Shown: positions 6,332-64,000, numbered from the stretch's first letter. The stretch is 64,000 nucleotides of DNA from an uncultured Candidatus Saccharibacteria bacterium (GCA_964360585.1 CAYHXC010000001.1:21907-85906), one strand, 5' to 3'. Program-made: numbers and translations. Notes: generated by a model from the sequence alone, not told the origin.

Positions 6332-6430
6332 AATTTAAAATTAAAAATGTAAAGTTAAAAATTGAATGTATCCTGGCAAAATACCAGAGAAATCAGAATT
6401 TTTCATTTTGACTTTTGCCTTTTGCATTTT

Positions 6431-8605: not shown

Positions 8606-8607
8606 GC

Positions 8608-8730
8608 CAGGTAGTGAAAATTCGACTAGGAATTGCGAGACTCTTTATCATGAAAATAGATACTGGTTTGGATCACAGCTTTGAATTATAAACTAAAAAA
8701 GGCATGCCCGTCGAATTTCTACTCCCTGGT
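8608..8730. mobile_element. MITE-like element, family C (TIR CCAGGTAGTGAAAATTCGAC / GTCGAATTTCTACTCCCTGG)
   Basis: ~20-bp imperfect terminal inverted repeats flank ~80 bp of AT-rich sequence. The same TIRs occur at 27694-27828 and 42378-42475. One TIR abuts the ATG of the 6965..8605 gene. Confidence 0.5.
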
Positions 8731-19057: not shown

Positions 19058-19132
19058 AGAAGCCTCCCTATCTACTCAATTTAGACAACGTTCTGAGAAA
19101 GGAGTCTATAGAAGCCCCGGGGAAAAGTAAAC

Positions 19133-19258
19133 CCCTACACCTAATGAGAAAAATAAAGCAACGTAGCTTTGAGTACAGGAACTATTTACCAATGAGAAAG
19201 TCGCCAATTCTACCAAGTTTTGTCGTTTTAGAACGACTATTTCTTATTAGGTGTGGGG
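19133..19258. mobile_element. MITE-like element, family A (TIR CCCCTACACCTAATGAGAAA / TTCTTATTAGGTGTGGGG)
   Basis: ~19-bp inverted repeats flank ~90 bp with an internal hairpin. A second copy with a perfect TIR lies at 46184-46316. Confidence 0.5.
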
Positions 19259-19278
19259 TAAAGTCGAAAATGAAGCAC

Positions 19279-19707: not shown

Positions 19708-19719
19708 AATTTATAAATT

Positions 19720-20175
19720 CGAAATACTAATATCGAAATCCGAAACAATGTTTAAATTCATAAATTCAAATATCATTTTGATTTCTGCAAGATAGCTCCA
19801 AAAATCATCATTAATTCAGTTGATTCTTGGACTAAATCATTCCACTCTTTGACAAGAATAGTATCTATCTGAGTTTCTAACAAATTCAGCCAATATCTGC
19901 TTTCTTTTGCTTCTTTTCGAGAAATTTTAATACGCATCAAAAAATCTTTCTTGCTTAAAGCCTCATTCGCCTCTATATAGTTTGCACCAACAGATCCCGA
20001 AGAACGAACTAATTGCTTAATATCATCAATACTGGCAATACCTTTCGGCAGCTTCTTAACAAAACTTCTTACTTGTTTTGCAAAATCAAATGTTCTTTTC
20101 TCAAGATCATATTGTTTTGTATTTCGTACTTCGCTCATTTGAATTTGTTTCGATTTTCGTGCTTCGAATTTCGTA
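19720..20175. mobile_element. IVS-like stem-loop cassette carrying a four-helix-bundle gene
   Basis: Flanks cgaaatactaatatcgaaatccgaaacaatg (19720-19750) and tgtttcgattttcgtgcttcgaatttcg (20145-20172) are mutually complementary. Both are homologous to the stem inside rnpB (17531-17638). Confidence 0.4.
19773..20138 (-). CDS. Four-helix-bundle protein (23S rRNA intervening-sequence protein family, TIGR02436-like)
   Basis: 121 aa, ...GSVGANYIEANEALSKKDFLMRIKISRKEAKESRYWL... is the family signature. Confidence 0.75.
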   Translation of the reverse strand: MSEVRNTKQYDLEKRTFDFAKQVRSFVKKLPKGIASIDDIKQLVRSSGSVGANYIEANEALSKKDFLMRIKISRKEAKESRYWLNLLETQIDTILVKEWNDLVQESTELMMIFGAILQKSK

Positions 20176-20176
20176 T

Positions 20177-25405: not shown

Positions 25406-25941
25406 TCGGCGGCTTGCCGCGAGGTTACCATATAAAAACTTATGATAGAATGGCCGCATGGGCGTAACCCGGAGTCATCACTGTGTCTACGACACGCACT
25501 ATCATGTCGTCTTTCCCGTTAAGTATCGCAAAGCTTTGCTATCAGGACCTCTCACTCAAGCGATTCTGGAAATCGCCCAGGACATAGAAGAACGGTATGA
25601 AGTCACGTTTGAGAAGATTGGCACCGATGGCAACCACATTCATATCCTGTGGGCTTTCCACCCCAAGTACAGCGCCACCGACATGGTGCGTCGGTTCAAG
25701 AGCATCACCGCTCGCGAACTCTTCCGGCGATTTCCGGAATTGCGTCGTGACTTGTGGGGAGGCGAGTTCTGGACTGATGGCTACTCCATCGCTACAGTCG
25801 GTACCGGCGGCGATTGGAAAACCGTCGAACGATATGTGGCCAACCAGGGAAAGACGACAGGGCATAACCTCCAGCTCAGACTCTGGCAGTGAGCCCAGGT
25901 GGCCATTCCGCTTCATACCCCGTCGGCTTGCCGCGGGGTGG
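25406..25941 (+). mobile_element. IS200/IS605-family insertion sequence (TnpA only) with subterminal imperfect palindromes
   Basis: Subterminal hairpins cctcggcggcttgccgcgagg (25407-25427) and cccgtcggcttgccgcggggtgg (25919-25941) bracket a single Y1-HUH transposase gene. The element interrupts arsR-B without an obvious target duplication, as expected for IS200/IS605. Confidence 0.7.
25458..25892 (+). CDS. tnpA: IS200/IS605 family transposase TnpA (Y1 HUH)
   Basis: 144 aa, HYHVVFPVKYRK...GNHIHILWAFHPKYS...ITARELFRRFPELRRDLWGGEFWTDGYSIATVG. The HUH motif (HIH) and catalytic Tyr region are present. Confidence 0.8.
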   Translation: MGVTRSHHCVYDTHYHVVFPVKYRKALLSGPLTQAILEIAQDIEERYEVTFEKIGTDGNHIHILWAFHPKYSATDMVRRFKSITARELFRRFPELRRDLWGGEFWTDGYSIATVGTGGDWKTVERYVANQGKTTGHNLQLRLWQ

Positions 25942-27638: not shown

Positions 27639-27693
27639 TGTATTTCATTATACTCGAGTATTTCTATATAATGAAAAGACCTGGGCTAGCTTA

Positions 27694-27828
27694 TGCCAGG
27701 TGGTAGAAATTCGATAGGCACGCTTTCTACTCTTTGTTTTAGAAAATCTAGACGAACTTCTTACATGCTCAGTGATTTCCATCTTAATTCACTTCCTAAA
27801 TAATAATCGAATTTTCACTACCTGGTAT
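27694..27828. mobile_element. MITE-like element, family C copy (TIR CCAGGTGGTAGAAATTCGATA / ATCGAATTTTCACTACCTGG)
   Basis: Inverted repeats flank ~90 bp. The right TIR ends 1 nt before the ndh ATG. Confidence 0.5.
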
Positions 27829-29104
27829 GGATAAAAAGAAAATACTGATTCTCGGCGCGGGCTTCGGCGGTCTCAAAACCGCTTTCCGACTGGCCGATGG
27901 ACTGAAACACAACAATCTCCTCGAAAAATATGAGGTTATTCTTATCGATCGGTATGAGCACCACACCTTTACTCCTCTCCTCTACGAGACCGCGACAACC
28001 TCTAAAGAAACGATTGACCTTGTCCGCCTCCATAGTCTCGTCACGCATAATGTGCGGAACCTGATCAATGGCTATCCGATTACATGTATCGAGGATATGA
28101 TTCGTGAGATTCGTCCGGGATCGGGCGAAGTCGTATTAGAAAAATCAGGCGCCGTCAAAGCAGAATATATCGTTCTCGCGCTCGGTTCGGAAGCCAACTA
28201 TTTTGACATGCCCGGCCTTAAGGAACACTCACTCACCCTCAAAACATTTACTGACGCTATTCGCATTCGGGATACAGTTCTTGATCTTACTGAAAATAAA
28301 GAATCGGGTATTCGCATTGTCGTCGGCGGCGCTGGACCAACGGGCGTCGAACTCGCCGCAGAACTCTCAAACTGGCGGCGTCGCGAGTCGGAAAAGTTAA
28401 GCTCGAAACTGAAAGTCACACTCGTTGAAGCCCAGCCCACCGTCCTTTTTGGCTTTCTGCCCTCCATCATTGCGGCAGCCGAGAAACGCCTTGCCGCTCT
28501 CGGTGTCGAAATGAAAACAAACACAAAGATTTCCGAACTGACAAAAGATACGGTCAAGTTCGAAAATGGCGAAGAGATGCCGGTTGATCTTTTTATCTGG
28601 ACTGGTGGGATTAAAACCCCGGAACTCCTCCAGCATTTGCCGCTCAAAAAAGAGGAGCGCGGCAAGATTGAAACCACTTCTTCGATGGACTGCTTACCCG
28701 AAACATCGGACTTATCGTTTGGCGCAAAAGTATACGGCCTTGGCGACAGTGTCTGTTTTCATGATCCGATTACGAAAAAACCAGTGCCGGCTGTTGCCCC
28801 GGCGGCGCTCGCCCAAGCTTCGGTTGTGGCCTACAACATCTTGGAAGATATCCGCGGCAAGGAGGGAATGGGTCCGATCGGCCACCGAATATACATACCA
28901 GTGAACTATCCTTACGTCATTCCCGTTGGTGGCAAATTTGCGATCGCAAGAATCGGTCCGCTTGTTCTCGGAGGATTCTTAGGTTGGCTCGTAAAAGGTG
29001 TGGTCGAACTCCACTACCTTTTCTCGATCATGCCTACATGGCAAGCGCTCCGCGTTTGGGCCCGAGGCCTGCGTGTCTTCTCAACCAACGACCAGCTGGG
29101 GTAA
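27827..29104 (+). CDS. ndh: Type II NADH dehydrogenase / FAD-dependent pyridine nucleotide-disulfide oxidoreductase
   Basis: 425 aa, two Rossmann dinucleotide motifs (ILILGAGFGG and VVGGAGPTGVELAAEL). Confidence 0.7.
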   Translation: MDKKKILILGAGFGGLKTAFRLADGLKHNNLLEKYEVILIDRYEHHTFTPLLYETATTSKETIDLVRLHSLVTHNVRNLINGYPITCIEDMIREIRPGSGEVVLEKSGAVKAEYIVLALGSEANYFDMPGLKEHSLTLKTFTDAIRIRDTVLDLTENKESGIRIVVGGAGPTGVELAAELSNWRRRESEKLSSKLKVTLVEAQPTVLFGFLPSIIAAAEKRLAALGVEMKTNTKISELTKDTVKFENGEEMPVDLFIWTGGIKTPELLQHLPLKKEERGKIETTSSMDCLPETSDLSFGAKVYGLGDSVCFHDPITKKPVPAVAPAALAQASVVAYNILEDIRGKEGMGPIGHRIYIPVNYPYVIPVGGKFAIARIGPLVLGGFLGWLVKGVVELHYLFSIMPTWQALRVWARGLRVFSTNDQLG

Positions 29105-29212
29105 TAAATTTAAAATTCAAAAATCAAAATTAAAAATGACAGTGCGAAACTCAAAATGAGCATCAACGAGAATTAAAAAAAGTCTCGAGCGAATTTCGCC
29201 GAGACTGTTTCC

Positions 29213-32058: not shown

Positions 32059-32457
32059 TTAAGAGACAAGGCCCTTTTCTTTCATGGTGGGGTAGAGTTT
32101 TTTAACCAAAGCATCGTGAAAAGCGTCGAGAACAAACGGTGTCGTCTTTCGCGCCTCCCGATCAGCCGAGAGAATCCCTTTGTGGAAAGCAATATCCAAG
32201 AGATACTCGACTTCGAGCTTCATTTCGGGTGGCGCGTTTTCCACATACTGCGGTAACGGGTTCTGAAGGTTGGTTGGCGGGTCAATCGGACCGTTCCCGG
32301 CCGTCGCAAATGACTGGATCGAGCGCTTTAAAAGGGCTTCGCCGCCTAAATGTCTTGTCTCCAGTGCCTCTCGATGTTTCCCCACCTCCTCGGCCAGCCG
32401 CTTCATGTCGTTCTCGAGAGCCTGGTGTTCAAATTCTGGTAGCAATTGTTCAGTCAT
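32059..32457 (-). CDS. Hypothetical coiled-coil protein
   Basis: 132 aa, directly upstream of the ATPase gene on the same strand. Confidence 0.35.
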   Translation of the reverse strand: MTEQLLPEFEHQALENDMKRLAEEVGKHREALETRHLGGEALLKRSIQSFATAGNGPIDPPTNLQNPLPQYVENAPPEMKLEVEYLLDIAFHKGILSADREARKTTPFVLDAFHDALVKKLYPTMKEKGLVS

Positions 32458-32460
32458 AAA

Positions 32461-32500
32461 GGGTAGGGGGTAGGGTTGAGGGTATAGGGGTTAGGGTCGG
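32461..32500. repeat. G-rich telomere-like heptamer repeats (GGGTAGGGGGTAGGGTTGAGGGTATAGGGTTAGGGTCGGG) abutting the start codon of the 32059..32457 gene
   Basis: TAGGG(G/T) units. On the coding (minus) strand they form a C-rich CCCUA-repeat leader that ends at the AUG. Confidence 0.5.
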
Positions 32501-32676
32501 GATAGGAAGGAATCTAGAATTTAGGAGTTAGAATCTAGTTATGAAGTAGTAGTGGCAGGATTAGTCCAGAAGCCGCCCCTCTAACTCCTAGATTCTAAAT
32601 TCTAATTCCCTCGAGTGCTGGTCCTCTCTCCTATCCCCTAGTCACTCATCACTAGTTCCTGTTACTATAGTATACA

Positions 32677-34302
32677 ATGGCTCGATACATATTTGTAACC
32701 GGCGGAGTGATGTCAGGAATTGGAAAGGGAGTATCGACCGCTTCAATCGCCCGCATCCTTCAAGAAAAAGGCTTCCGCGTGACTGCCGTAAAAATTGATC
32801 CGTATGTGAATGTCGACGCCGGAACTATGAACCCTCTCGAACACGGAGAGGTTTTTGTGACCGAAGACGGCTTGGAGTGCGACCAGGATATTGGAAACTA
32901 CGAACGTTTCCTCGGCACAAACATCTATCGCGACAACTATATGACAACCGGCCTCGTCTATCAGACCGTAATCAGCCGCGAACGCAGCCTGGGCTATGAT
33001 GGCCGTTGTGTTCAAGTTGTCCCGGCCATTCCCGACGAAGTTATCCGCCGCCTGAAAATCGTCGGCCAGAAAACGAAGGCTGATTTTATTTTAATTGAGA
33101 TCGGTGGCACCGTTGGCGAGTACGAAAATCTTCTCTTCCTTGAAGCGGCGCGCATGCTGAAACTGCAAAGTCCCGAGTCAGTCATGTTTGTGCTCGTGAG
33201 CTACCTGCCGATTCCCTCGAAGATTGGGGAGATGAAAACCAAGCCGACCCAGCACGCCGTCCGCAACTTAAATGGCGCCGGTATCCAGCCGGATATCATT
33301 CTCGCCCGCTCGCCAGAACCACTCGATGGCCCACGGAAACAAAAAATCGCTATTTTCTGTAACGTCACACCGGAAGACATCATCTCCGCGCCGGACGTTG
33401 ATTACATCTACGAAATTCCGATCAACTTTGAAAAAGAAGGGATTAGTAATCGTATTTTGAAAAAGTTTGGTTTGAAGCCAAAAAAGAGTGATGGACGTGA
33501 GTGGCGCTCACTGGTTCGCTCAATTCACACCGCTAAAAAACCAGTCAGGATTGCGATCGCCGGAAAATATTTCACGACCGGTAACTTCACCCTCGGCGAT
33601 TCATATCTTTCCGTAATTGAAGCGATCAAACACGCCTCGTGGAAGTTGGGGCGGAAACCGGTGATCGACTGGATCGATACTAGCGCTTATGAGAAATCAA
33701 AAACGAACCTGAAAAGCCTTTCGAAATACGACGGCTTGATCGTGCCGGGCGGTTTCGGCTCACGCGGCATTGAAGGGAAGATTTTGGCCATCCAGTATGC
33801 TCGCGAGAAAAAAATCCCCTTCTTGGGATTGTGCTATGGCCTTCAGCTGGCAGTAATCGAGTATGCCCGCAACATGGCTGGATTAAAGCAGGCGCATACA
33901 ACCGAGGTAAATCCTAAAACCCCTGACCCCGTCATCCATATTCTCCCCGAGCAGTTGGAGAATCTCCACAAAGGGAATCTCGGCGGTTCAATGCGTCTCG
34001 GCGCTTATCCTTGCGAACTGAAACCAGGAACTAAAGCGGCAAAGGCCTATAGCCAAAAGATGATTACCGAACGCCATCGCCATCGCTACGAGGTAAACAA
34101 CCAGTATCGAGACCTCTTAGAGAAGAAAGGTTTAACCGTTTCCGGCGTAAACCCAGAAAAAAATCTGGTCGAGGTCATCGAACTCAAGAACCATCCGTTC
34201 TTTGTGGCCAGCCAGTTCCATCCGGAGCTGAAGTCACGACCACTTTCGCCCCATCCCCTGTTTTTGGAGTTCGTGAAAGCCGCCAGCAAGAACAGGGGCT
34301 AG
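32677..34302 (+). CDS. pyrG: CTP synthase
   Basis: 541 aa, MARYIFVTGGVMSGIGKG N-terminus and glutamine amidotransferase C-domain (GLCYGLQ). Confidence 0.9.
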   Translation: MARYIFVTGGVMSGIGKGVSTASIARILQEKGFRVTAVKIDPYVNVDAGTMNPLEHGEVFVTEDGLECDQDIGNYERFLGTNIYRDNYMTTGLVYQTVISRERSLGYDGRCVQVVPAIPDEVIRRLKIVGQKTKADFILIEIGGTVGEYENLLFLEAARMLKLQSPESVMFVLVSYLPIPSKIGEMKTKPTQHAVRNLNGAGIQPDIILARSPEPLDGPRKQKIAIFCNVTPEDIISAPDVDYIYEIPINFEKEGISNRILKKFGLKPKKSDGREWRSLVRSIHTAKKPVRIAIAGKYFTTGNFTLGDSYLSVIEAIKHASWKLGRKPVIDWIDTSAYEKSKTNLKSLSKYDGLIVPGGFGSRGIEGKILAIQYAREKKIPFLGLCYGLQLAVIEYARNMAGLKQAHTTEVNPKTPDPVIHILPEQLENLHKGNLGGSMRLGAYPCELKPGTKAAKAYSQKMITERHRHRYEVNNQYRDLLEKKGLTVSGVNPEKNLVEVIELKNHPFFVASQFHPELKSRPLSPHPLFLEFVKAASKNRG

Positions 34303-34351
34303 TGATTAGTGGATAGTGATTGGTGATTACACTACCGAACTCAGCGAATAA

Positions 34352-34585
34352 ATGATCAAAAACATAAGAAAGTTATCCGGGATTCAATTTGGAATATTGG
34401 CCGTTCTCCTAATTGTTTTTTCTGCCTATGTCGGCGCGACACAGGTTTATGTTGCATGGAGATGTGGCTATCAACCATTTCTAGAAGGAGAGGCTCCAAA
34501 TCCATTCATAATATATAGATTTCTGATTAAAAACAACGCAAGCATTCATCCGTTATGCGAATCCTTGTTGTTTAATAAGAATTAA
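34352..34585 (+). CDS. Hypothetical small membrane protein
   Basis: 77-aa ORF with one TM segment; weak support. Confidence 0.2.
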   Translation: MIKNIRKLSGIQFGILAVLLIVFSAYVGATQVYVAWRCGYQPFLEGEAPNPFIIYRFLIKNNASIHPLCESLLFNKN

Positions 34586-34656
34586 ATTACTGTCATTGCG
34601 AGCAAAACGAAGCAATCTCTTATCTAAAAAGATTGCCACGTCACTCTGTTCCTCGC
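34582..34656. repeat. Compound hairpin (12-bp stem tgtcattgcgag/ctcgcaatgaca enclosing a second gcaatct/agattgc stem)
   Basis: Nested inverted repeats. Shares the GATTGCCACG core with the structured element at 47105-47240. Confidence 0.35.
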
Positions 34657-34679
34657 AATGACAATCACCCTTGCGCTAC

Positions 34680-34710
34680 TAAAACTCCCGAGGTTAACTC
34701 GGGAGTTTTG
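34680..34710. terminator. Bidirectional terminator (aaaactcccgag gttaa ctcgggagtttt)
   Basis: 12-bp perfect stem between the convergent + region and rplU. Confidence 0.6.
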
Positions 34711-35011
34711 TGATTTCTACTTCAGTGAATGGCTGGCGGTGGCCTTTGCGGCGACGCAAGCGAGTTTTGGAATGGTACTTGAAGATTAACTTCTTTTCGC
34801 CTCGTCCTTGCATGAGAACCTTGGCGGCAACTTTCTCCGAGGCTACATAAGGCTGACCAACTTTAACAGTGTCACCATTAACGTTCAGAAGCACACGATC
34901 AAAAGAAATATCGCTTCCGGAAGCGGCTTCTAATTTTTCGATTTTCAGTTTGTCGCCAGCGGAAACCTTGTACTGCTTCCCGCCGGTTTCGATGATTGCG
35001 AAATTTGGCAT
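34694..35011 (-). CDS. rplU: 50S ribosomal protein L21
   Basis: 105 aa, MPNFAIIETGGKQYKV...GHRQPFTEVEI, L21 family. Confidence 0.85.
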   Translation of the reverse strand: MPNFAIIETGGKQYKVSAGDKLKIEKLEAASGSDISFDRVLLNVNGDTVKVGQPYVASEKVAAKVLMQGRGEKKLIFKYHSKTRLRRRKGHRQPFTEVEITKLPS

Positions 35012-35045
35012 AGGGGTTAGGGGTTAGGGGTTAGGGGTTAGGGTT
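35012..35045. repeat. Four tandem GGGGTTA heptamers (telomere-like) immediately upstream of the rplU start codon
   Basis: aggggttaggggttaggggttaggggttagggttg, followed at 35060-35087 by the C-rich complement-like acccttgaccctacaccctaatccc. Confidence 0.55.
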
Positions 35046-35088
35046 GAATTTTCACTATACCCTTGACCCTACACCCTAATCCCTGTAG

Positions 35089-35454
35089 TTAGTTGACCGT
35101 GATAATAGCTTGAAACACGGTAAAAAGCAAGATAGATAAGCCGAGTGTGACAGCGGCAACAAACTTTCCCCAAAACCAATCCCGATATTCGAGCTCAAGC
35201 GCAATGGCATAGTTTATACCGACGACTACCCAACCAATAACGCCATAGCCAAGAACCTGGGCCAAAGTACCAAACTGATCTATGCCATCACGGGTGTAGT
35301 GAATAACAAGCGGTCCACTATGATCACGGAAAGTAGAAAAAAGAAGCGCCTGCCCGATAAGAATAATCAGAAACGCCAGGCCCGATACAATACTCACGAG
35401 TTGGCGCGCCTTAGCTCGGTCCCATATTTTTTTAAGTTGGATGCGCGCGTTCAT
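35089..35454 (-). CDS. Hypothetical membrane protein (3-4 TM helices)
   Basis: 121 aa, hydrophobic. Confidence 0.35.
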   Translation of the reverse strand: MNARIQLKKIWDRAKARQLVSIVSGLAFLIILIGQALLFSTFRDHSGPLVIHYTRDGIDQFGTLAQVLGYGVIGWVVVGINYAIALELEYRDWFWGKFVAAVTLGLSILLFTVFQAIITVN

Positions 35455-36443
35455 TTTGGACGGAGAAACGAAGCCACATAATCAGGGTCGATGGTATTGA
35501 TATCTACCCCAGTCGAAAGTTCAAATCCGGCCAAGATGGTGATCTTGGGAATGATTTCAATGTGCCAATGATAGTAGGGATAGCGATCTTGATGTTTCAG
35601 GGGGGCGGTATGAATGAAAAAGTTCAGATCCGGATCTCCTAAGCGTTTTGTAATTAATCCCAAGGTTTTCTGAAGCAGATGACTCACTTCACGCATCACC
35701 CCGCCCGGTGTTTTTTCAAAAAACGGCAGATGCTTCTTCGGGAAAAGACGGAGCTCGTAGGAAGTACGTGAAACATAAGGCGCGATAATAATCACATCCC
35801 GGGTTTCTAAAACGACCCGTTTTTTCACCTTCCGCTCGTAGGCCAGCATATCGCAGTGCACACATTTTTTATTTTTTCGATAGTACCGCTCCGAACCGTT
35901 CAAGGAGTGCTGAACATCCGGGGGCACAATCGGCAGGGCCAGGATCTGGTAGTGGGGATGATAGAGCGAGGCTCCGGCCTTGGCTCCCCAGTTATAAAAA
36001 GTGGAAGCGTAGGTAATGCAAGGATCGGCGGCCAGTTCTTCGTATCGTTTTTTCATGACGGCCAAAACCTCGGTGGCATGCTCGGGAGAAAGTTCAGCGA
36101 AGTTTTTGAAGTGATCGCGGGTAATGACGAGATCGTGATGGCCAACACCGGTGCGCGAAAGGTATGGACCGCTGGCGATCGCTTCCGAACACCGCTCGAT
36201 ATGGGTTAGGGCGGGAAAACGATTCGGCACGATAACCACCCGCCAGTTTTCCTGACTCGGATAGCTCAAAAGCGGCGGCCAGTTTGGCGCGGCGATTAAG
36301 AGTTTTGGCTCAAAGGGACAGTTCGTTTTGGGAACACGTTTCCGCTTCTCTATCGCTTTTTTAAAACTTGATGGCCGAGATGATCGCTCCGGCGCCATCA
36401 CAATCCAGTCGCCAGAAACGGGATCTTGTCGAAATTCAGACAT
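35451..36443 (-). CDS. galT: Galactose-1-phosphate uridylyltransferase-like HIT-superfamily nucleotidyltransferase
   Basis: 330 aa, CPFEP, HPHYQILALP (HxHxQ HIT-like motif), and CVHCDM zinc motif resemble GalT / ADP-glucose phosphorylase. Confidence 0.6.
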   Translation of the reverse strand: MSEFRQDPVSGDWIVMAPERSSRPSSFKKAIEKRKRVPKTNCPFEPKLLIAAPNWPPLLSYPSQENWRVVIVPNRFPALTHIERCSEAIASGPYLSRTGVGHHDLVITRDHFKNFAELSPEHATEVLAVMKKRYEELAADPCITYASTFYNWGAKAGASLYHPHYQILALPIVPPDVQHSLNGSERYYRKNKKCVHCDMLAYERKVKKRVVLETRDVIIIAPYVSRTSYELRLFPKKHLPFFEKTPGGVMREVSHLLQKTLGLITKRLGDPDLNFFIHTAPLKHQDRYPYYHWHIEIIPKITILAGFELSTGVDINTIDPDYVASFLRPK

Positions 36444-36445
36444 AC

Positions 36446-36478
36446 AAATAGTGTATAGGGTTTAGGGCTTAGGGGCTA
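36446..36478. repeat. G-rich TAGGG(T/C/G) repeats abutting the galT-like start codon
   Basis: tagggtttagggcttaggggctagggc begins 3 nt from the ATG at 36443. Confidence 0.5.
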
Positions 36479-36520
36479 GGGCAGTAGCTAGTAGTTAGGA
36501 TCTAGGAGCTATATAATCAA

Positions 36521-36802
36521 GTGGTGGCTCTAAAAATTATTATTAAGGATATCGGAATAGCCATACTTATTTTCGTTATTGTCGGTGGTATTGTTTTGCG
36601 GAAGCTCGATCTTCTGCATTATTCTTCGAATTGGTGCGACTATGAACATCCTGTCGAACGTGAGGTTCCGTGCGGACAAGCCATCTTTATTGGCAGTCTT
36701 CTAGTAGAGAAACCGATCGTTTTTATTCCCACTTATGCGAAACCAGAATATATTGATGAGATGGGGCCTCCCCCAGTAATTTGCTCCGATGATAGCTGCT
36801 GA
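36521..36802 (+). CDS. Hypothetical small membrane/secreted protein
   Basis: 93 aa, one TM helix, 4 Cys. Confidence 0.3.
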   Translation: MVALKIIIKDIGIAILIFVIVGGIVLRKLDLLHYSSNWCDYEHPVEREVPCGQAIFIGSLLVEKPIVFIPTYAKPEYIDEMGPPPVICSDDSC

Positions 36803-36870
36803 CCGTCAACGAATGTGCGGCCCTTATTTTTTTTCGTTGAGCTCGCCGTGTCCTTGCCTTCATCCTCCTA

Positions 36871-37032
36871 GAACCCATCTCAAAAATAGAATCACGCAGT
36901 CTTCCGGCTAGATTCGGCTATAAACCCACCCGACCCTCCTTGAAATACCATAGGGTATTCCTGTCTCGGGTCGGATGGTTCTCGCTCGAATCTATCACGG
37001 AATACCCCTGTGCCTATTTTTGAGATGGGTTC
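36871..37032. mobile_element. MITE-like element, family B (162 bp; TIR GAACCCATCTCAAAAATA / TATTTTTGAGATGGGTTC)
   Basis: 18-bp perfect terminal inverted repeats. A second, inverted copy at 58429-58589 is about 95% identical over its full length. Confidence 0.55.
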
Positions 37033-38921
37033 TAACTTTTTTTAGAAAGTTGGGAAGATAAACGGTGCAAGTAGTACCACTCGAAAATATCTTTAGCGAT
37101 CGGGACGGCGTTCAAGCTCCCCTGTTTGGCGTTTTCAACTAAAACCAAAATTGCTAATTCAGGCTTGTCCGTTGGCGCATAGCCAACGAAGAAAGCATTT
37201 TCCACAGTGTTATTTTGCGTCTGGGCCGTTCCCGTCTTGGCCGCAATCGTCATCGGTAAACCGGAAAGCAGATGGCTTGTTCCCAAAGTAGATTGTACAC
37301 CCAACTCCATCCCTTTTTGTGCATACCGAATCTCCGGGGCTAGATGGGTGAGATCACGAGTTACTTCTGGTTTTTGGAGGTCAGCAGCAAGATAGGGCTG
37401 ATAGAGCGTCCCGCCATTCGCGATAACCGAAATATAGTTCAAAATCTGAAGTGGTGTCACCTGCAAGTCTCCTTGACCGATACTCACGTTGTACGTATCT
37501 CCCAAGAGCCACGGCCGCTTTCTTCGTTTCTCGGCTTCTTCAAGATTTGGAAGGCGTCCTGTCCCCTCGCCGGCAATATCAATCCCGCTCTCCCGACCCA
37601 TCCCGAACATGTCCCACCAGGCGAGAAGACGGGTAATGCCAAGTCCTTGAATGTCGCCGAAGCCGCCGCCGACTTCGTAAAAATAAACGTTACTCGACTG
37701 GGCAATGGCGGACATGACATTCACGTAGCCCTGCGGCCGCCAGTCTAAAAACCGGGTTGGTTTTGATGGGTCGAATCGGTTCGGCACATCGAGATAGCCG
37801 GGAGAGTAGATGGAACGGTCGGGCGTGATTACTTTTTCTTTCAAGGCAGCCACCGCGACCAAAGGTTTGATCGTCGAACCGGGACTATAAAAACCGGAAA
37901 CAATGCGGTTAAAAAACGGATGGAGCGGCGCGGTTAAAATTTTTTGTTTCTCCTCATTTTTCCCCGGCGAAGAAAGAATAGTGTTGTCGTAGCTGGGAAG
38001 ACTGATCATGGCCAGTATTTCGCCGGTCTGTGGATTCATGGCCAAACCAGCGCCCGACTCTCTCCCTAAGGAAGCGAGGCCTTGCGTCAGGCGGTTATAA
38101 AAATACTTCTGCAGTCCGCTATCAATCGTGAGGCGGAGCGCATTCCCGGAAACTGGTTCGACAGACTCGGCCTGGTTCAAGGCCACACCCTTGGCGTTCC
38201 GACGCTCGGCCGTGTAACCATTTATTCCGCGAAGCGCGTCATCATAGTAGGCCTCGATACCCGCCTTTCCGACAATAAGCTCGTTTTTGAGCTTCGGATT
38301 TCTCGCGAGACTGGCCGCATCAATTCGTCCGGTGTATCCAAGGACGGTGGCGAACTGGGGACCGTCTTTATAGTCACGCGTAAATCCTGGTCGAACAGTC
38401 ACTGGGAGATCGGTCTGCGATTGGAAGGCCACAATTTGCGCCTCATCCAGTCCTTCGCTGATCAAAATCTCATCTTTTTCTCGCGCCACACCTTCCAGAA
38501 TTTCTTCTTCTAAAGTATCCGGGGTAACTTTCAAAATATCAGAAACTCGCCTCATGATCGTTATGCGGTTGGTTGATGAAGCGATAAATTCCTTGAGGCG
38601 CAGGAAGGCCAGGAAACTTGGTTGATTGTCGGCCAAGACCACGCCGTTCCGATCAGTAATCACACCGCGCGGCGCCGGATCAATCTTTCGCGCTTCAAGG
38701 TTGGCAATGGCTCTCGTTCTATATTCAGCATACGAAAATGGCCCTAAAATCAGCATCCGCACGAAGATAATAGAGACCAAGAGGCTGGCCGAAAGACCGA
38801 CAATCTGGAAAACGTGGCTCTTGATCGGCATTTCGGCAATCTCCAAACTGTTCACCAATTCGTCCGCGGATAATCCTTCAAAGGAAAAATCGAATTCTTT
38901 TTCCTGGGAATGATTCTTCAT
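37032..38921 (-). CDS. mrdA: Penicillin-binding protein 2 / peptidoglycan D,D-transpeptidase
   Basis: 629 aa, N-terminal TM, dimerisation domain, transpeptidase motifs STIKP and KTGTA. Lies immediately downstream of mreBCD. Confidence 0.8.
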   Translation of the reverse strand: MKNHSQEKEFDFSFEGLSADELVNSLEIAEMPIKSHVFQIVGLSASLLVSIIFVRMLILGPFSYAEYRTRAIANLEARKIDPAPRGVITDRNGVVLADNQPSFLAFLRLKEFIASSTNRITIMRRVSDILKVTPDTLEEEILEGVAREKDEILISEGLDEAQIVAFQSQTDLPVTVRPGFTRDYKDGPQFATVLGYTGRIDAASLARNPKLKNELIVGKAGIEAYYDDALRGINGYTAERRNAKGVALNQAESVEPVSGNALRLTIDSGLQKYFYNRLTQGLASLGRESGAGLAMNPQTGEILAMISLPSYDNTILSSPGKNEEKQKILTAPLHPFFNRIVSGFYSPGSTIKPLVAVAALKEKVITPDRSIYSPGYLDVPNRFDPSKPTRFLDWRPQGYVNVMSAIAQSSNVYFYEVGGGFGDIQGLGITRLLAWWDMFGMGRESGIDIAGEGTGRLPNLEEAEKRRKRPWLLGDTYNVSIGQGDLQVTPLQILNYISVIANGGTLYQPYLAADLQKPEVTRDLTHLAPEIRYAQKGMELGVQSTLGTSHLLSGLPMTIAAKTGTAQTQNNTVENAFFVGYAPTDKPELAILVLVENAKQGSLNAVPIAKDIFEWYYLHRLSSQLSKKS

Positions 38922-41154: not shown

Positions 41155-42378
41155 TTACTCGGCTATCATATTCCGAGCATCTTCCAAAGACAAAACGTGA
41201 ACCTCTTCTTCTCCGCGCCGCTTCAGCTCAACCTGCGATCCCAATTTTGGGCTGACCACCATTCGCCAGGGAATACCGATCAGATCCGCATCGGCAAATT
41301 TTTCTCCGGCGCCAACCGCTCTGTCGTCATAGAGTACTCGAATGCCGGCCGCTTGTAAATTCTCATAGATCTCGTCCCCCGAGGCCTCGCCCAGAGAAAG
41401 CAGATGCACCTGGAATGGCGCTACGGCCTTCGGCCAGGTCAGGCCCTTTTCATCATGAAATACCTCGGCCAGGACGCCCATAAGGCGGGAGATGCCAATG
41501 CCATAACAGCCCATGATCACCTCCCGCTCCGTGCCATCCTTATCTTTATACAATAGCTCAAATGGCGACGAGTACTTGGTTTTGAGCTTGAAGATGTTTC
41601 CCACCTCGGCGCCAACTGACTCTTTAAGATCGCTCGAACCACAGTTTGGACAGGTTGACTGTTCCTCAATAATTTCCTTATTAATGGCGACCCGGCAGTT
41701 GTTACATATATAGATCGTGTCCTCACCGGACTCGGTCAGTGTCTGAAATTCGTGCGAGTATTTGGCAAAGGTACCGCCGGAAGCAAAAGTAAAATATGTT
41801 TTCTCGCCAATTCCTAAACGATCATAAATGCGAACATAGGCCTCGCGAACGGTTTCGTAATAACGATCGAGATCCGCCTCGTCAGCGTGAAAGGAGTAGA
41901 GATCCTTCATTAAAAATTCCCGACCGCGCAACAAACCGGACTTGGCTCGTTTTTCATCACGGAATTTTGTCTGAATTTGAAAAACGCATTTCGGCAGATC
42001 CTGGTACGAAAGAATACTCCGCTTCGCGAGCGGCGAGACAATCTCTTCGTGCGTTGGACCAAGGGCGTACTCATTTTGGGAGTAGTGGCTCATAAAACGG
42101 AAAAGCGTGTCGTATGTTTTCCAACGATCAGTTGTTTCCCAGTTCTCTTTCGGCTGAAGAGCTGGCATCAGAATTTCTTCTCCGCCAATTTTCTGCATCT
42201 CTTCGCGAACTATGTTTTCGATATTTTTCAGCACGCGCAAACCGAGCGGTAAATAGGAATAGACACCGGCCATTAGCTTATCTACAAAACCAGCGCGGAT
42301 TAAAAGCTGAGCATTAACTGCCGCTTCATCCTTCGGAGCATTGCGTAATGTTTTTGAAAAAAGTTCAGATTGCCGCAT
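41155..42378 (-). CDS. proS: Prolyl-tRNA synthetase, short form lacking the editing insertion
   Basis: 407 aa, class II motifs (FRDE..R..GLLRGREFLMKD.YSF), a CxxC...CxxC zinc insertion, no INS domain. Confidence 0.75.
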   Translation of the reverse strand: MRQSELFSKTLRNAPKDEAAVNAQLLIRAGFVDKLMAGVYSYLPLGLRVLKNIENIVREEMQKIGGEEILMPALQPKENWETTDRWKTYDTLFRFMSHYSQNEYALGPTHEEIVSPLAKRSILSYQDLPKCVFQIQTKFRDEKRAKSGLLRGREFLMKDLYSFHADEADLDRYYETVREAYVRIYDRLGIGEKTYFTFASGGTFAKYSHEFQTLTESGEDTIYICNNCRVAINKEIIEEQSTCPNCGSSDLKESVGAEVGNIFKLKTKYSSPFELLYKDKDGTEREVIMGCYGIGISRLMGVLAEVFHDEKGLTWPKAVAPFQVHLLSLGEASGDEIYENLQAAGIRVLYDDRAVGAGEKFADADLIGIPWRMVVSPKLGSQVELKRRGEEEVHVLSLEDARNMIAE

Positions 42379-42475
42379 ACCGGGTAGTCGAAATTCGAAT
42401 AATTAATAAAATAGTTTTCACGCCATTCCAGGCAGGTTCTGGGATGAAAACCCTTTCGAATTTTCACTACCCGGC
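42378..42475. mobile_element. MITE-like element, family C copy (TIR CCGGGTAGTCGAAATTCGAA / TTCGAATTTTCACTACCCGG)
   Basis: 20-bp inverted repeats flank ~55 bp. One TIR abuts the proS start codon. Confidence 0.45.
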
Positions 42476-45646: not shown

Positions 45647-46189
45647 TTATCGCGTAAAGGATTCGAGGATAGTGCGGAACTTTTCATACTGGGGAAGCTG
45701 ATCCTGTTTTTGCAATCCCAAATGTTTCAGGGTTTCAAAACTGACTTTATACAAGAATGAATTGGTGCGCTCGGGATCCGGCGATCGCTCAACAAGACCG
45801 CGAATGAGGAGCGAACGCAACGTAAACAGCGAATTCACCCCGCGCAGATATTCGATGCGACTGCGGGAGATGGGACCAAGATACAAGATAACCGACAGCA
45901 CCTCAAGACTGGCCGGCGTGAGATCTTCACTCAACTCTTTTTTCATGAAACTTTCGAGCAGGGCATGAAACTGCGGCTTCGTGACCAACTGCACCTTGTC
46001 CTCGTGCCGGACCAGCCGTAATCCCCGCTCGCCCCGTTCCAGCTCCTTCTCCAGGACATCGAGCAGTGCTTCGCACTCCGTTTTATCCAACTTCAAAACC
46101 TCCCCCATTTTTTTGAGCGTCAAAGGCTCTCCGTGAAGAAAGAGGAGGGCTTCGCACTCGGCTAGTTGGTGATTTTTGTTCATCCCCAC
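45647..46189 (-). CDS. scpB: Segregation and condensation protein B
   Basis: 180 aa, winged-helix pair typical of ScpB, immediately downstream of scpA. Confidence 0.7.
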   Translation of the reverse strand: MGMNKNHQLAECEALLFLHGEPLTLKKMGEVLKLDKTECEALLDVLEKELERGERGLRLVRHEDKVQLVTKPQFHALLESFMKKELSEDLTPASLEVLSVILYLGPISRSRIEYLRGVNSLFTLRSLLIRGLVERSPDPERTNSFLYKVSFETLKHLGLQKQDQLPQYEKFRTILESFTR

Positions 46190-46316
46190 ACCTAATGAGA
46201 AACTGTGCTCTTAAGCAGCACAATCTCAATATAATAAACGACTCTTTTATGCATTTTATAATTGCTCATATGCGACATAGTATTTGGAAAATCAATATTT
46301 CTCATTAGGTGTGGGG
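46184..46316. mobile_element. MITE-like element, family A copy (perfect 19-bp TIR CCCCACACCTAATGAGAAA)
   Basis: Fills the scpA-scpB spacer. The left TIR overlaps the scpB start codon. Confidence 0.55.
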
Positions 46317-46318
46317 AT

Positions 46319-47065
46319 TCATGCAGTAGATTCGTTCGGTTTAATAATTATATCAGAGAAATGCTCGGCCTGTTCGATGATGATGGTTTGTTCGCGAGCG
46401 AGATGGAGAATCGCCAAAAAAGCGACGATAACGTCCGATCGGTCTCCTGATTTTGATAATTTGGAAAAGGTTGTCTCCTCAATGCGGTGCAACCGCTCAA
46501 GAATATGCTGCATTTTTTCCTCAAGCGTCACGATCACACTCCGCATAACCTCTTCCTCCAGAATGATCTTCTGAAGCGATTGGGTCAGTCGTTCCATGTG
46601 AGGAATGAGATTTTCAAGTGCGAGCGTCTCCCCGGGATAAAAAGTATTGTGCGATACATCCTGCGGCAGGTTTCTCGAGATAGAAAGAAAATAAGGACGA
46701 CTGGATTCCTTTTCCTCCGAACGCCAGAGTTGGGCGACCAACCTTCCCGCCTCCTTGAACTCCCGATAGGCCTTCAACCGCTCTTCAAGTTCAACCAGAT
46801 TTTCTTCGTCTTCCATTGTCATCGGAAGATCGGGCAAAAGAGATTTCGATTTTAAAAGGATCAGCTGGCTCGCGATCACAATAAAATCAGCCAGCAAGGC
46901 CGGCGGCGCTTCGCCAAGCGTTTCCACGTGTTTCAAAAAGTCATCGGTCACTTTGGCCATGCTCAAACGGCTCACATCCATCTTCTCCGATTCGATGAGT
47001 TCAAGAAGTTTGTCTAACGGCCCGGAGAACTCTCCGAGACGCAGTTCATAAGAGACAATGATCAT
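46319..47065 (-). CDS. scpA: Segregation and condensation protein A (kleisin)
   Basis: 248 aa, ScpA family. Confidence 0.7.
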   Translation of the reverse strand: MIIVSYELRLGEFSGPLDKLLELIESEKMDVSRLSMAKVTDDFLKHVETLGEAPPALLADFIVIASQLILLKSKSLLPDLPMTMEDEENLVELEERLKAYREFKEAGRLVAQLWRSEEKESSRPYFLSISRNLPQDVSHNTFYPGETLALENLIPHMERLTQSLQKIILEEEVMRSVIVTLEEKMQHILERLHRIEETTFSKLSKSGDRSDVIVAFLAILHLAREQTIIIEQAEHFSDIIIKPNESTA

Positions 47066-47066
47066 A

Positions 47067-47100
47067 GGGTGTAGGGGTTAGGGTATAGGGTATAGGGTAG
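47067..47100. repeat. G-rich TAGGG(T/G) repeats abutting the scpA start codon
   Basis: gggtgtaggggttagggtatagggtatagggtag begins 1 nt from the ATG at 47065. Confidence 0.5.
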
Positions 47101-47240: not shown

Positions 47241-47292
47241 AATTGTATGTATGACCATTAGTTATCAGTTATTAGTTGTTGGTCAGCGTCAG

Positions 47293-52733: not shown

Positions 52734-52799
52734 TTGGCAATGAGTAGTCGGGAGATAATCCTCGCTCCTCGCTAATTACTGCCTACTATTTACTAACTA

Positions 52800-53255
52800 C
52801 TATCTGGTAACCGAGATAGTCTGGCCCAACTGGGCAGACGGAGCGGACAAGGTGATCACCCCCGTGGAACTGGTTTTCAAAATATAGTACCCAGAATCGT
52901 AATCCGTAACCGACGTGTAGTACGCGCCCGACGCCGAAGGATCATAGGGCATCGCTGGTAAATACGGCACTATGCATGGAGCGATGTCATACGTACTCGT
53001 CCCGCTCGAGGCCATTTTTTTCGATGAGGTTGGGATGTCCCCCGCCGCGCACGGAAAAACACCGGTTCTATTTTCGGCAGTCAATTCACGTACCCATAGG
53101 CCAATTGCGTTCAAATCAGATGTTCGCTGATTATTTCGCGCCTTGGCCAACTGCCCCGCCGGATTTATAGAGCGAATGACGAGCGCGCCAACGATAACCA
53201 TTAATCCAACTGAAAGAATTATTTCCACTAACGTAAAAGCGTTTCGTGTTTTCAT
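52800..53255 (-). CDS. Type IV pilin-like protein
   Basis: 151 aa. N-terminal AFTLVEIILSVG is the prepilin cleavage/methylation motif. Confidence 0.6.
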   Translation of the reverse strand: MKTRNAFTLVEIILSVGLMVIVGALVIRSINPAGQLAKARNNQRTSDLNAIGLWVRELTAENRTGVFPCAAGDIPTSSKKMASSGTSTYDIAPCIVPYLPAMPYDPSASGAYYTSVTDYDSGYYILKTSSTGVITLSAPSAQLGQTISVTR

Positions 53256-58224: not shown

Positions 58225-58450
58225 TTATCCTCCAAACTTTTTGTAATTTTTTAATACACGTAGCAAATAATTTTTCCCCCCAACCAGATTTCAAAAATTT
58301 CTCTCTTAAAGCGGCGTCGTGCTTATTTAAATACGACTCAATATAAATCAATTTAAAAGGACGTCTAGACTGGGTGGAAAAAACTTTTCCAGAATTATGC
58401 ATAATAAGTCGTCGCTTTAAATTATTAGAACCCATCTTAAAAATAGGCAC
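58211..58450 (-). pseudogene. GIY-YIG nuclease remnant (N-terminal motif region replaced by MITE-B sequence)
   Basis: Residues ...NNLKRRLIMHNSGK...RRPFKLIYIESYLNKHDAALREKFLKSGW align with the middle and C-terminal parts of YhbQ-like GIY-YIG proteins. The first 8 codons are encoded by the MITE TIR. Confidence 0.4.
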
Positions 58451-58589
58451 AGGGGTATTCCGTGATAGATTCGAGCGAGAACCATCCGACCCGAGACAGG
58501 AATACCCTATGGTATTTCAAGGAGGGTCGGGTGGGTTTATAGCCGAATCTAGCCGGAAGACTGCGTGATTCTATTTTTGAGATGGGTTC
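58429..58589. mobile_element. MITE-like element, family B copy (inverted orientation relative to 36871-37032)
   Basis: Reverse complement of copy 1 with the same 18-bp TIRs. Sits between pilB and pilC and overlaps the GIY-YIG remnant. Confidence 0.55.
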
Positions 58590-58680
58590 TAGTAATACCG
58601 ACATATTTGTCTCTATCAATTGTACTTTCTCATACATAAACGTGCCACCACATATCTTTACAAAAAGTGAGGAGGACAAG

Positions 58681-60717: not shown

Positions 60718-60788
60718 TGCCGGATCGTCTAATGGTAGGACACAGCTCTCTGAAAGCTGTTATCTTGGTTCGAATCCAAGTCCGGCAG
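60718..60788 (+). tRNA. tRNA-Gln (anticodon CUG)
   Basis: Hand-folded cloverleaf. Acceptor stem TGCCGGA/TCCGGCA has U1-A72, typical of tRNA-Gln. D-arm GTCT-AATGGTA-GGAC. Anticodon stem CAGCT/AGCTG with loop CTCTGAA. T-arm CTTGG-TTCGAAT-CCAAG. Discriminator G. Confidence 0.8.
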
Positions 60789-60811
60789 CATCAGTCAGCG
60801 CAGTATCGTGG

Positions 60812-61201
60812 ATGACCGCGACGCATAAGTTTTATCGAAGTATGGAACCATTTAAGAAAGTAACGACGGAGGTCAGAAAACATAATATAAGTTTATTGTG
60901 GTCTATTTCAGATCGCTGGTTTAGAATTTTGGAATTTTCACTCATTATGGGGATATTGAATTACTTTAAAGATCAAACGAGCAGTATTGTTATAGAGATC
61001 ATCTACTGGATATCTTGGACCTTCATGTTTTGGCTGATTTTAGAAGTAATCGAATTTATTGCACAAACATTTTCTAAAAACAAAACCTTAAAAATACGGT
61101 GGTTGATATGGGCTGTTTCATTTAGTGCATTTTTCATGTTGTTTCTTACAATTACTTCCGCAGCAAATTTCATAACCGAAGGACAGTTTGGTATAAAGTA
61201 A
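60812..61201 (+). CDS. Hypothetical membrane protein (AT-rich)
   Basis: 129 aa, 3-4 TM helices. Confidence 0.3.
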   Translation: MTATHKFYRSMEPFKKVTTEVRKHNISLLWSISDRWFRILEFSLIMGILNYFKDQTSSIVIEIIYWISWTFMFWLILEVIEFIAQTFSKNKTLKIRWLIWAVSFSAFFMLFLTITSAANFITEGQFGIK

Positions 61202-61324
61202 AGCTCCGATCAAGACGGACCAATAATTCCAGCCTCGTCGCACAATTATATGTTGGGCGGCGGACTCGCAAACAAAAAGCACCCTCTCGAATAACGAAAG
61301 GGTGCTGTTATTCCACGGTCAATC

Positions 61325-62941: not shown

Positions 62942-63413
62942 GTGCTACCTCCTTTGTTGTTGAGCTGGTTAGATTCTACCAGGGCAAAGTCAAAATCTGA
63001 AATATATATAATCTTATACCACAAAAAGTGACACTACCCCACCCCATTCTCGTGTCACTTTTGTCACTTTTTGGCGAACAGAGGCGCTCGAGACCCGTCG
63101 AGATGATAAGATAAAACTACTTGAAATTGCCTTACAGAGCTTGACCGCTCACGGTTCTAGCTCGAGACGGCCAGCACGAGTCAGCGCAATATCGAGGCAG
63201 ACTAGAGAGCCTCGTCGAGCTGCGGACCCGATCTCCGTCCCTTAATCGTCATACCGGCTGCTTGCCCGGCCGAAGCTTTCTTGTCCGCCATAGCTTTCTT
63301 TGACCTTCCGAAGCCTTGTGTGTAGGAGGTAGCGTCGGCGGGAGCGAAGGAGGGAGCGCCGTATTCAGAGAAGAAAAACACCAATTCGATTGGTGTTTTT
63401 CTTCGTGCGTCAT

Positions 63414-63968: not shown

Positions 63969-64000
63969 AACCTCTCCTTCCTCATTGTGGAGAGACTCTA

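Follow-up and report, generated by a model that had tools for sequence, protein, structure and literature searches.

A 64-kb stretch of DNA (GCA_964360585.1, CAYHXC010000001.1:21907-85906; hereafter the window) carries four tandem arrays of a TAGGGNN heptamer, each of 4-6 units, all on the plus strand and all facing the starts of minus-strand genes: ORF132 (open reading frame; array A), rplU (array B), a galT/HIT-like gene (array C) and scpA (array D). We conclude that: i) the unit TAGGGNN, which is NNCCCTA in gene sense, is a kind of short tandemly repeated repetitive (STRR) sequence, like the Xanthomonas/Nostoc and TAACTGA heptamers, here in Patescibacteria, and ii) as judged from syntenic relatives, the four arrays are young, lineage-specific insertions or expansions at formerly short junctions. 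The explanation that we favor, tentatively, is that these heptameric simple sequence repeats (SSRs) were born by slippage and/or by the spread of heptamer-built hairpins, and were kept where their G-poor strand adjoins an AUG that is used independently of a Shine-Dalgarno (SD) sequence. The novelty lies in the phylum and the unit, in the direct contact with the start codon, in the form of a hairpin plus tail, and in comparative evidence for insertion into leaderless or coupled junctions.

The arrays, first reported in an initial annotation of the window, are real and non-random. With Tandem Repeats Finder each of the four sites has a period of 7 with 3.9-5.1 copies, and TAGGGNNTAGGG has 14 exact matches in 64 kb vs 0.05 expected from dinucleotide shuffles, 13 of them in the four arrays (plus strand) and one on the minus strand at 35067-35078, in an inverted partner upstream of rplU. 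The ~73 kb of source genome examined contain the four arrays and this one partner, all inside 15 kb, and nothing of the kind in the extra 8.9 kb. Each array had been said to end 1-3 nucleotides (nt) from an ATG. This holds for three of them: the distance is 0 for rplU and scpA, where one T belongs both to the first TAGGG and to the start-codon CAT, and 2 nt for ORF132 (CAT at 32455-32457). It is loose for the galT-like gene, where 12 nt, with a degenerate unit and the -10-like TACACT, lie between the ATG and the first clean unit. As proposed, the gene-sense strand is rich in C at all four arrays (4/4), and it has no G as far as the AUG. Array A is part of a C-free run of 42 nt (32456-32497), and the four longest sense-G-free runs of the window's minus strand all abut starts (rplU, ORF132, scpA and rpsM). 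Four more assemblies, independent of one another and obtained from the same aquifer well (L207-L210), have arrays of identical base sequence, and therefore they are not assembly artefacts. Furthermore, window positions 60728-64000 are 100% identical to part of one contig of the metagenome-assembled genome GCA_038058255.1.

Table 1. Heptamer arrays, the genes that they face, and associated features of the window.
Feature	Position	Strand	Remarks
Array A, AGGGT AGGGGGT AGGGTTG AGGGTAT AGGGGTT AGGGTCGGG	32460-32503	+	Faces ORF132; G-rich on +, sense C-rich/G-free
Array B, (TAGGGGT) x4.7, perfect	35011-35045	+	Faces rplU; in mRNA sense, hairpin 3' arm plus free tail
Array C, TAGGGTT TAGGGCT TAGGGGC TAGGGCA	36456-36482	+	Faces galT/HIT-like gene
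Array C degenerate tail, TAG-phased (TAGC TAG TAGT TAGGATC TAGGAGC)	36483-36511	+	Ends near ORF93 start (36521, +)
Array D, TAGGGTG TAGGGGT TAGGGTA TAGGGTA TAGGGTA	47065-47100	+	Faces scpA; unpaired in predicted folds
ORF132, conserved unknown protein	32059-32457	-	First of a gene pair with a TraG/VirD4-like ATPase
rplU (ribosomal protein L21)	34694-35011	-	CAT 35009-35011; Pfam L21
galT/HIT-like DUF4921 gene	35451-36443	-	CAT 36441-36443; Pfam GalT/DUF4921
scpA	46319-47065	-	CAT 47063-47065; Pfam ScpA
TATAGT + ATACA before pyrG ATG (32677)	32666-32676	+	Putative remnant of ancestral 19-nt divergent leaderless promoter pair
-10-like TACACT, 6 nt before galT-like ATG	36450-36455	-	Position kept in array-less L201 and L203; putative leaderless promoter
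rplU inverted partner CCCTTGACCCTACACCCTAATCCCT, G-rich in mRNA sense	35060-35084	+	5' arm of intercistronic hairpin; ~4 nt past ORF121 TAA (35089-35091)
rplU hairpin loop GAATTTTCACTATA	35046-35059	+	Resembles GAATTTTCACTACC, a motif abutting three other start codons
Imperfect palindrome of TAG-phased heptamers, GAATCTAGAATTTAGGAGTTAGA / TCTAACTCCTAGATTCTAAATTC	32508-32611		Homologous to the L201 hairpin upstream of rplU
TCCTATCCCCTA, single unit pair, C-rich in pyrG sense	32629-32640	+	Mirror image of array A on the palindrome's other side
AT-rich heptamer array, AATTAAA x4.6	6332-6363	+	Abuts rpsM ATG (rpsM 5948-6331, -); sense G-free
Separate heptamer run, TTAGTTA TCAGTTA TTAGTTG TTGGTCA GCGTCAG	47258-47292	+	Far end of the 227-nt scpA spacer, by the YkuD/S11 gene stop

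The start codons against which these distances were taken are reliable, because the rplU, scpA and galT-like products fit their Pfam models right from the N-terminus and orthologues are equally long. The galT-like protein on record (P0001, 100% identical) has 272 amino acids, 58 residues under the 330-amino acid form backed by all homologues, and its start was probably miscalled owing to the missing ribosome-binding site (RBS). Arrays that adjoin a start can thus mislead gene callers, and TTTAGGG units run the further risk of being taken for eukaryotic contamination. The lack of an SD sequence before the array genes, noted at the outset, is true and is a genome-wide trait: an SD-like 4-mer was found at -20 to -4 in 3/58 window genes. 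In the 20 nt before starts the proportion of G is 0.13-0.18 vs 0.25 in coding sense, and A is enriched. Many window genes have a -10-like box, often TG-extended (TGnTAnAAT-type), 5-10 nt before the ATG, which suggests that their mRNAs may be leaderless or carry very short leaders.

The window was compared with three syntenic relatives, L201, L203 and L204, whose galT-like proteins show 77%, 75% and 65% amino acid identity, respectively. The gene order YkuD/S11-scpA-scpB-S11-mraY-proS-mreBCD-PBP2-galT-like-ORF-rplU-pyrG(opposite)-ORF132-traG-like is common to these and the window. At the four orthologous sites no TAGGG array was found in any of the three, and a conserved set of arrays was rejected on this ground. 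The spacer before scpA is 3 nt in L201 and 227 nt in the window. That before the galT-like gene is 29-53 nt in the relatives, with TACACT 7 nt before the ATG in L201 and L203; in the window TACACT lies 6 nt before the ATG and the array directly upstream of it. Before rplU there are 1 nt (L204), 43 nt (L203) and 97 nt (L201), and in the window 77 nt, all of it hairpin. The divergent pair pyrG/ORF132 is separated by 19 nt in L203, 52 nt in L204 and 288 nt in L201; in the window ~200 nt are inserted between the -10 region and the ORF132 ATG. The L203 spacer (5175-5202) reads CAT-TGTATACTATAATAACAAC-ATG and contains a pair of -10 boxes that overlap and stand 5-6 nt from their respective ATGs, an arrangement that implies putative leaderless transcripts in both directions, and TATAAT-AACAAC-ATG is kept against ORF132 in L204 (13655-13684) and in L201. 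The pyrG half, TATAGT-ATACA-ATG, survives in the window (32655-32680). Since the arrays are missing from relatives with mostly tiny spacers, they are recent lineage-specific additions. Other junctions have grown too: scpA and scpB overlap by 8 nt in L201, and a 129-nt perfect-stem hairpin lies between them in the window; PBP2 and the galT-like gene are separated by 44 nt in L201 vs 588 nt in the window; and other intergenic hairpin repeat families also enlarge the window spacers. The array loci are natural experiments: a gene that has no leader, or is coupled, in one lineage has a 40-220 nt repeat leader in another.

The same boxes bear on the proposal that the arrays are stacked -10-like TANNNT elements giving leaderless mRNAs, which we consider very improbable. 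In its favor, the clade genes have a leaderless appearance, their -10 boxes being 5-7 nt from the ATG, and some units read TACCCT or TATACC. However, the 7-nt period yields TANNNNNT instead of TANNNT, the units either have no T at position 6 or are wrongly spaced from the ATG, the arrays do not include the conserved -10 boxes, and a consensus scan revealed no sigma-70-like promoter in or beside the arrays.

A wider sample of 80 metagenomic contigs with rplU relatives, drawn from the candidate phyla radiation (CPR), shows the TAGGG unit to be one instance of a general clade habit. Among the tandem arrays of these contigs 43 have period 7 vs 12 each of periods 6, 8 and 9. Of the intergenic arrays of period 7-9 with a facing start, 15/36 lie within 7 nt of that start vs 6.4 expected from uniform placement in each array's own spacer (P ~3.5e-5). 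Their sense-strand units (e.g., TTATCGC, ATTAGTA, CTTTATAA, TAAACAGC, TTCTATT and TTTAATT) are G-poor and unrelated to TAGGG, and rplU orthologues in other CPR lineages have unrelated 7-8 nt units at the equivalent position. The likeness to telomeres is incidental, because clade arrays with quite different units also abut starts. Eukaryotic telomere units are TTAGGG and TTTAGGG, and the likeness extends to the unit only, literal TTTAGGG repeats being present in array C and in contig L051. Unlike telomeres, the window arrays are internal to a contig of a reported 141 kb with genes on either side, 30-45 nt long, made of imperfect units, adjacent to starts and devoid of a telomerase context. The term telomere-like, used by the initial annotation, therefore describes the unit sequence, one of many heptamer types, and not its meaning; a telomere or contamination was ruled out because the arrays are internal and independent assemblies agree on them. 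A CRISPR array was also ruled out, the 7-nt units being contiguous and without spacers. One CPR contig (L141/L144; Ga0335069/Ga0335071) is very rich in heptamer arrays, part of them within a called ORF, with the units AAATGAC x17.6, GTCATTA x10, AGGGGAC x6.6, CCATGTC, CCTTGTC, TCCCAGC and TCCCTTG.

Replication slippage in bacteria favors 7-nt units. We propose that the arrays originated by such slippage and/or by the spread of TAG-phased heptamer hairpin elements. The ancestral spacers would have been so short that any insert made contact with a start codon, and inserts may have survived only if their AUG-proximal end was G-poor in the mRNA. Such a filter could stem from SD-less initiation and the many apparently leaderless genes, that is, from a reliance on an unpaired start region. 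As a consequence scpA would have passed from a leaderless or coupled state to a G-free single-stranded leader, and so would the galT-like gene, provided that its transcription begins upstream, and rplU and ORF132 would have acquired a module of stop, hairpin, short free tail and AUG. The potential to form a G-quadruplex (G4) and the telomere likeness would be by-products of the unit, and a dedicated regulator would be unnecessary. Several observations count against this explanation. Should TACACT give the galT-like gene a leaderless transcript, the array would be outside the mRNA and an RNA-level filter would fail there. The scpA-scpB hairpin sets a G-rich arm against an ATG, so that the G-poor rule is not universal. 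All four array genes are on the leading strand, and the orientations of replication and transcription are inseparable save for the mirrored unit pair on the pyrG side. The model leaves the clustering of the four arrays in 15 kb (of ~73 kb) unexplained, and the slippage origin itself is something that we infer.

The near-complement that had been noted beside the rplU array is present, and the 77-nt spacer from the ORF121 TAA to the rplU ATG folds almost entirely as a single hairpin (-30.4 kcal/mol, z -2.7). In its predicted fold ~15-19 nt of CCCCUAA units remain unpaired before the AUG. When the full spacer of ORF132 was folded, a long imperfect hairpin was obtained (-63 kcal/mol, z -2.2) with array A as its 3' arm. 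Hence, an unstructured leader for all arrays, a reading that we had entertained, was rejected since full-spacer ORF132 folds like rplU, and the description now applies to the AUG-proximal tail: in predicted folds the arrays of rplU and ORF132 are hairpin 3' arms that leave ~10-19 nt free ahead of the AUG. No inverted partner was found for the other two arrays; that of scpA is single-stranded in predicted folds, as is that of the galT-like gene in the short fold. An Rfam scan gave nothing but one tRNA at gathering score and nothing relevant at E<=1 in 32300-37100, a null that rules out a known leader or riboswitch (e.g., the L21 leader), and a terminator scan detected no U-tract terminator at the rplU hairpin.

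Spacers with z < -2.5 are more frequent upstream of rplU (48%) than elsewhere (24%; Mann-Whitney P = 0.015) in the clade, and structured spacers are found in 31% of same-strand vs 11% of divergent cases. The order stop-array-loop-inverted array-ATG, with z of -2.7 to -6.1, is found in several rplU orthologues and at the junction of secY and adk in L051 (Levyibacteria; units TAGGGTT/CCCTAAC). A selected intercistronic initiation or processing device of SD-less Patescibacteria could account for this architecture: a stop, a hairpin of two inverted 7-8 nt arrays, a G-poor tail of 7-20 nt and the AUG. The hairpin might stand in for the SD helix, or be an RNase III site that frees a near-leaderless downstream mRNA. 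The arms would evolve in concert, giving fast unit turnover (TAGGGGT in the window; TAGAATT, TTATCGC, ATTCGTA, CTTTATAA and TAAACAGC elsewhere) and a lasting architecture, especially before rplU. When the rplU spacer of the window is aligned with that of L201, the TAG phase of the 5' arm and the CTA phase of the 3' arm are kept every 7 nt, and the four bases between phases differ on both arms (GGTG/ACCC-type in the window, AATT/AATT-type in L201). With two sequences at hand, compensatory change in a hairpin that is orthologous would fit this pattern, and independent insertions would fit it equally well. We regard selection for such a device as unlikely; if true, the rplU hairpin-plus-tail module would bear on how translation starts without SD pairing.

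Array A, the palindrome at 32508-32611 and the unit pair at 32629-32640 make up the ~200-nt insertion between pyrG and ORF132. The palindrome shares an identical 18-mer, CTAGAATTTAGGAGTTAG, with the ~100-nt hairpin upstream of rplU in L201; the two sites are non-orthologous, and therefore at least that hairpin is a member of a dispersed family. This finding fits the main rival to slippage and retention, namely that mobile hairpins of TAG-phased heptamers, like MITEs (transposable elements of the miniature inverted-repeat type) or the hairpins formed by repetitive extragenic palindromes (REPs and REPINs), target gene junctions, the arrays being their ends or arms and the strand bias arising from replication-coupled single-strand transposition. 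It is compatible with inverted-repeat families that exactly span the stop-to-start junctions at 46182-46318, 8606-8729, 42379-42475 and 27690-27826, with an IS200-like Y1 transposase gene and its small flanking hairpins at 25458-25892, and with the G-rich arms all being on one (lagging) strand. On the other hand, the scpA and galT arrays lack an inverted partner, the unit differences within arrays fit slippage and decay rather than copies of one element, and heptamer arrays are not known to be ends of IS200/IS605 elements. We thus consider mobile hairpins an improbable source, albeit ahead of the other alternatives. The likeness to REP/REPIN/MITE sequences consists of dispersed intergenic hairpins between co-oriented genes and the Y1 (IS200-like) gene in the window; unlike REPs and REPINs (Bertels and Rainey 2011, PMC3116915), the window arms are tandem heptamers instead of a fixed palindrome, and 2/4 arrays have no partner.

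The window arrays are best read as members of a known bacterial heptamer-repeat class. Cyanobacterial STRRs (Calothrix/Nostoc) are tandem intergenic heptamers with many unit types per clade, and the window arrays are likewise tandem intergenic heptamers, in a clade with many unit types. A pattern scan of a genome collection for TAGGGNN x4 gave at least 120 loci, a mixed sample and not a census; among those listed were many from filamentous cyanobacteria, some from Planctomycetes and two CPR genomes. Of the 130 arrays listed at these loci, 25 were placed just after a stop with a G-rich sense strand, the commonest position, and 4 abutted a start codon with a C-rich sense strand; among upstream copies within 50 nt, C-rich sense outnumbered G-rich sense by 12 to 4. 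Unlike this sample, all four window arrays abut start codons. In a Ca. Buchananbacteria contig (L092, 1273-1330), TAGGGAG/TAGGGGT x4 directly follows a stop, with its G-rich strand in sense, and runs into a near-consensus promoter (TTGACA-17-TAAAAT), thus occupying the UP-element position.

Within this class, Rehm et al. (2015) described the heptamer SSRs GGGAATC in Xanthomonas and GGGGA(C/T)T in Nostoc PCC 7120, which form G4 in vitro and for which a function was not established (PMC4692102). The window arrays resemble them in the 7-nt unit with a G3-4 tract, the number of units (about four) and the intergenic location; in the placement at most 50 bp upstream of an ORF whose non-coding strand is the G-rich one (0-12 nt from the ATG in the window); and in the inverted copies that can form stem-loops and the mixed function of the neighboring genes (PMC4692102). 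All four arrays share the tandem units, the placement and strand, and the G4 sequence rule of the heptameric SSR/STRR class. They differ in the unit TAGGGNN, in belonging to a small compact genome of Patescibacteria, in touching or overlapping the start codon, and in having only 4-5 copies in 73 kb, which are clustered. Moreover, the Xanthomonas/Nostoc heptamers vary in length and sequence between close relatives (PMC4692102), whereas the relatives of the window are wholly array-less instead of carrying variants between the same genes.

This comparison raises the question of whether the arrays, which the initial annotation had suggested might form G4 on the non-template strand, act as G4 or i-motif DNA that modulates transcription or replication at the four genes. 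The sequence rule (regex G3+N1-7 x4) is satisfied by 4/4 arrays, each with at least four G3+ runs and loops of 1-7 nt, and together with the rplU partner arm they provide 5/7 of the motifs in 64 kb. The strand assignment was wrong, the G-rich plus strand being the template for these genes. Related heptamers fold as G4 in vitro, with four units preferred, although a regulatory role was not found (PMC4692102). Against such a role, the AT-rich array before rpsM holds the same position as the TAGGGNN arrays, as do AT-rich arrays in the clade, and cannot form a G4; in addition, the relatives lack arrays. We judge a G4 function to be unlikely.

The second system is TAACTGA. MacGregor (2015) reported direct repeats of this heptamer in marine Beggiatoaceae, and also in Cyanobacteria and Bacteroidetes, and proposed binding of S1, a cold-shock protein (Csp) or CsrA (PMC4679880). 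As in the window, 2-6 heptamer units have one orientation toward the start, the largest class ending ~1 nt upstream, and the starts have no RBS, include those of ribosomal-protein genes or operons, and belong to hosts with low SD use (PMC4679880). The forward orientation ~1 nt from an RBS-less start is thus common to both, and the unit (NNCCCTA) is not. TAACTGA is G-poor on both strands, has no hairpin partner and forms ~170 sets of one unit per genome (PMC4679880); unlike it, the window unit is C-rich in sense, 2/4 arrays are hairpin arms and the related lineages use many units. TCAGTTA, in the heptamer run at 47258-47292, is the complement of TAACTGA, and there is one sense TAACTGA unit at 47265-47271. 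The heptamer-at-start geometry now extends to compact Patescibacteria genomes that scarcely use SD sites.

By analogy, the CCCUAAN leader units could form an RNA operator that is bound multivalently by an S1, cold-shock or KH-type protein, with ORF132, rplU, the galT-like gene and scpA as its regulon. A 7-nt period suits the footprint of an OB-fold or cold-shock domain, and one motif stands before four genes in 15 kb; an equivalent proposal exists for the TAACTGA repeats (PMC4679880). The sequence-specific regulator of C-rich RNA that had been postulated is nevertheless a doubtful candidate, and we give the operator little credence: the motif is not kept at these genes in the relatives, unrelated units precede rplU in other CPR lineages, the four genes are functionally unrelated, and no candidate regulator was seen among the window genes.

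Upstream heptamer SSRs act as phase-variable contingency repeats in Haemophilus (PMC12721329), and changes in copy number could in principle tune or switch the four genes. We consider this scarcely probable, since the copy number is equal, at consensus level, in five independent assemblies, including one 99.5% identical variant, the genes are housekeeping genes, and the units are imperfect in 3/4 arrays.

The host was also placed. The named homologues of the galT-like protein are annotated as Patescibacteria group, Candidatus Liptonbacteria, Ryanbacteria, Paceibacterota and Parcubacteria, and the best rplU matches come from 0.1-µm-filtered Hainich groundwater. The organism is a Patescibacteria (CPR, Parcubacteria-like) bacterium of Hainich groundwater. 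A cyanobacterial origin, considered in view of the STRR-like repeats, was rejected because HIP1 (GCGATCGC) has only 6 matches vs 1.7 expected, which is too few.

Other repeats were recorded in the window. Further period-7 arrays, whose units are AT-rich or mixed (AATTAAA before rpsM, ATTTTGC, AAATTCA, GATTAGT and CTACTAT), are located at 6332-6430, 19708-19772, 20139-20176, 29105-29137, 34303-34335 and 52759-52805; some adjoin starts (rpsM, an RNase H/RVT_3 gene and a 23S rRNA IVP gene) and some stops. An inverted-repeat family, CCRGGTAGTGAAAATTCGA ... TCGAATTTTCACTACCYGG, has copies at 8606-8729, 27690-27826 and 42379-42475, and at 17998-18020 of L201. Its 3' arm stops 1-3 nt before the ATG of the gene at 6965-8605, of the Pyr_redox gene (27827-29104) and of proS (41155-42378), and AATAATCGAATTTTCACTACCTG-ATG is kept before the orthologous Pyr_redox gene in L201, a conservation that suggests a functional leader motif. 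The scpA-scpB junction (46182-46318) is filled from stop to start by a perfect 21-nt inverted repeat, ATCCCCACACCTAATGAGAAA / TTTCTCATTAGGTGTGGGGAT, and a second copy of the family lies near 19058-19278. The Y1 transposase gene (25458-25892; Pfam Y1_Tnp, E 1e-33) has GC-rich hairpins upstream (CCTCGGCGGCTTGCCGCGAGG) and downstream (CCCCGTCGGCTTGCCGCGGGG), both unrelated in sequence to the TAGGG arrays. Two copies, 99.4% identical, were found of a 167-nt element that is bounded by perfect terminal inverted repeats of 21 nt (TAGAACCCATCTCAAAAATAG) (36803-37034 and 58426-58592), one of them inside the 588-nt PBP2/galT-like insertion beside ORF93 (36521-36802, plus strand), a gene missing from the relatives. 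Finally, a hairpin at 34591-34663, TGTCATTGCGAGCAA ... TTCCTCGCAATGACA, looks like a widespread palindromic repeat, a similar 'cattgcgagg' being found upstream of rplU in L155.

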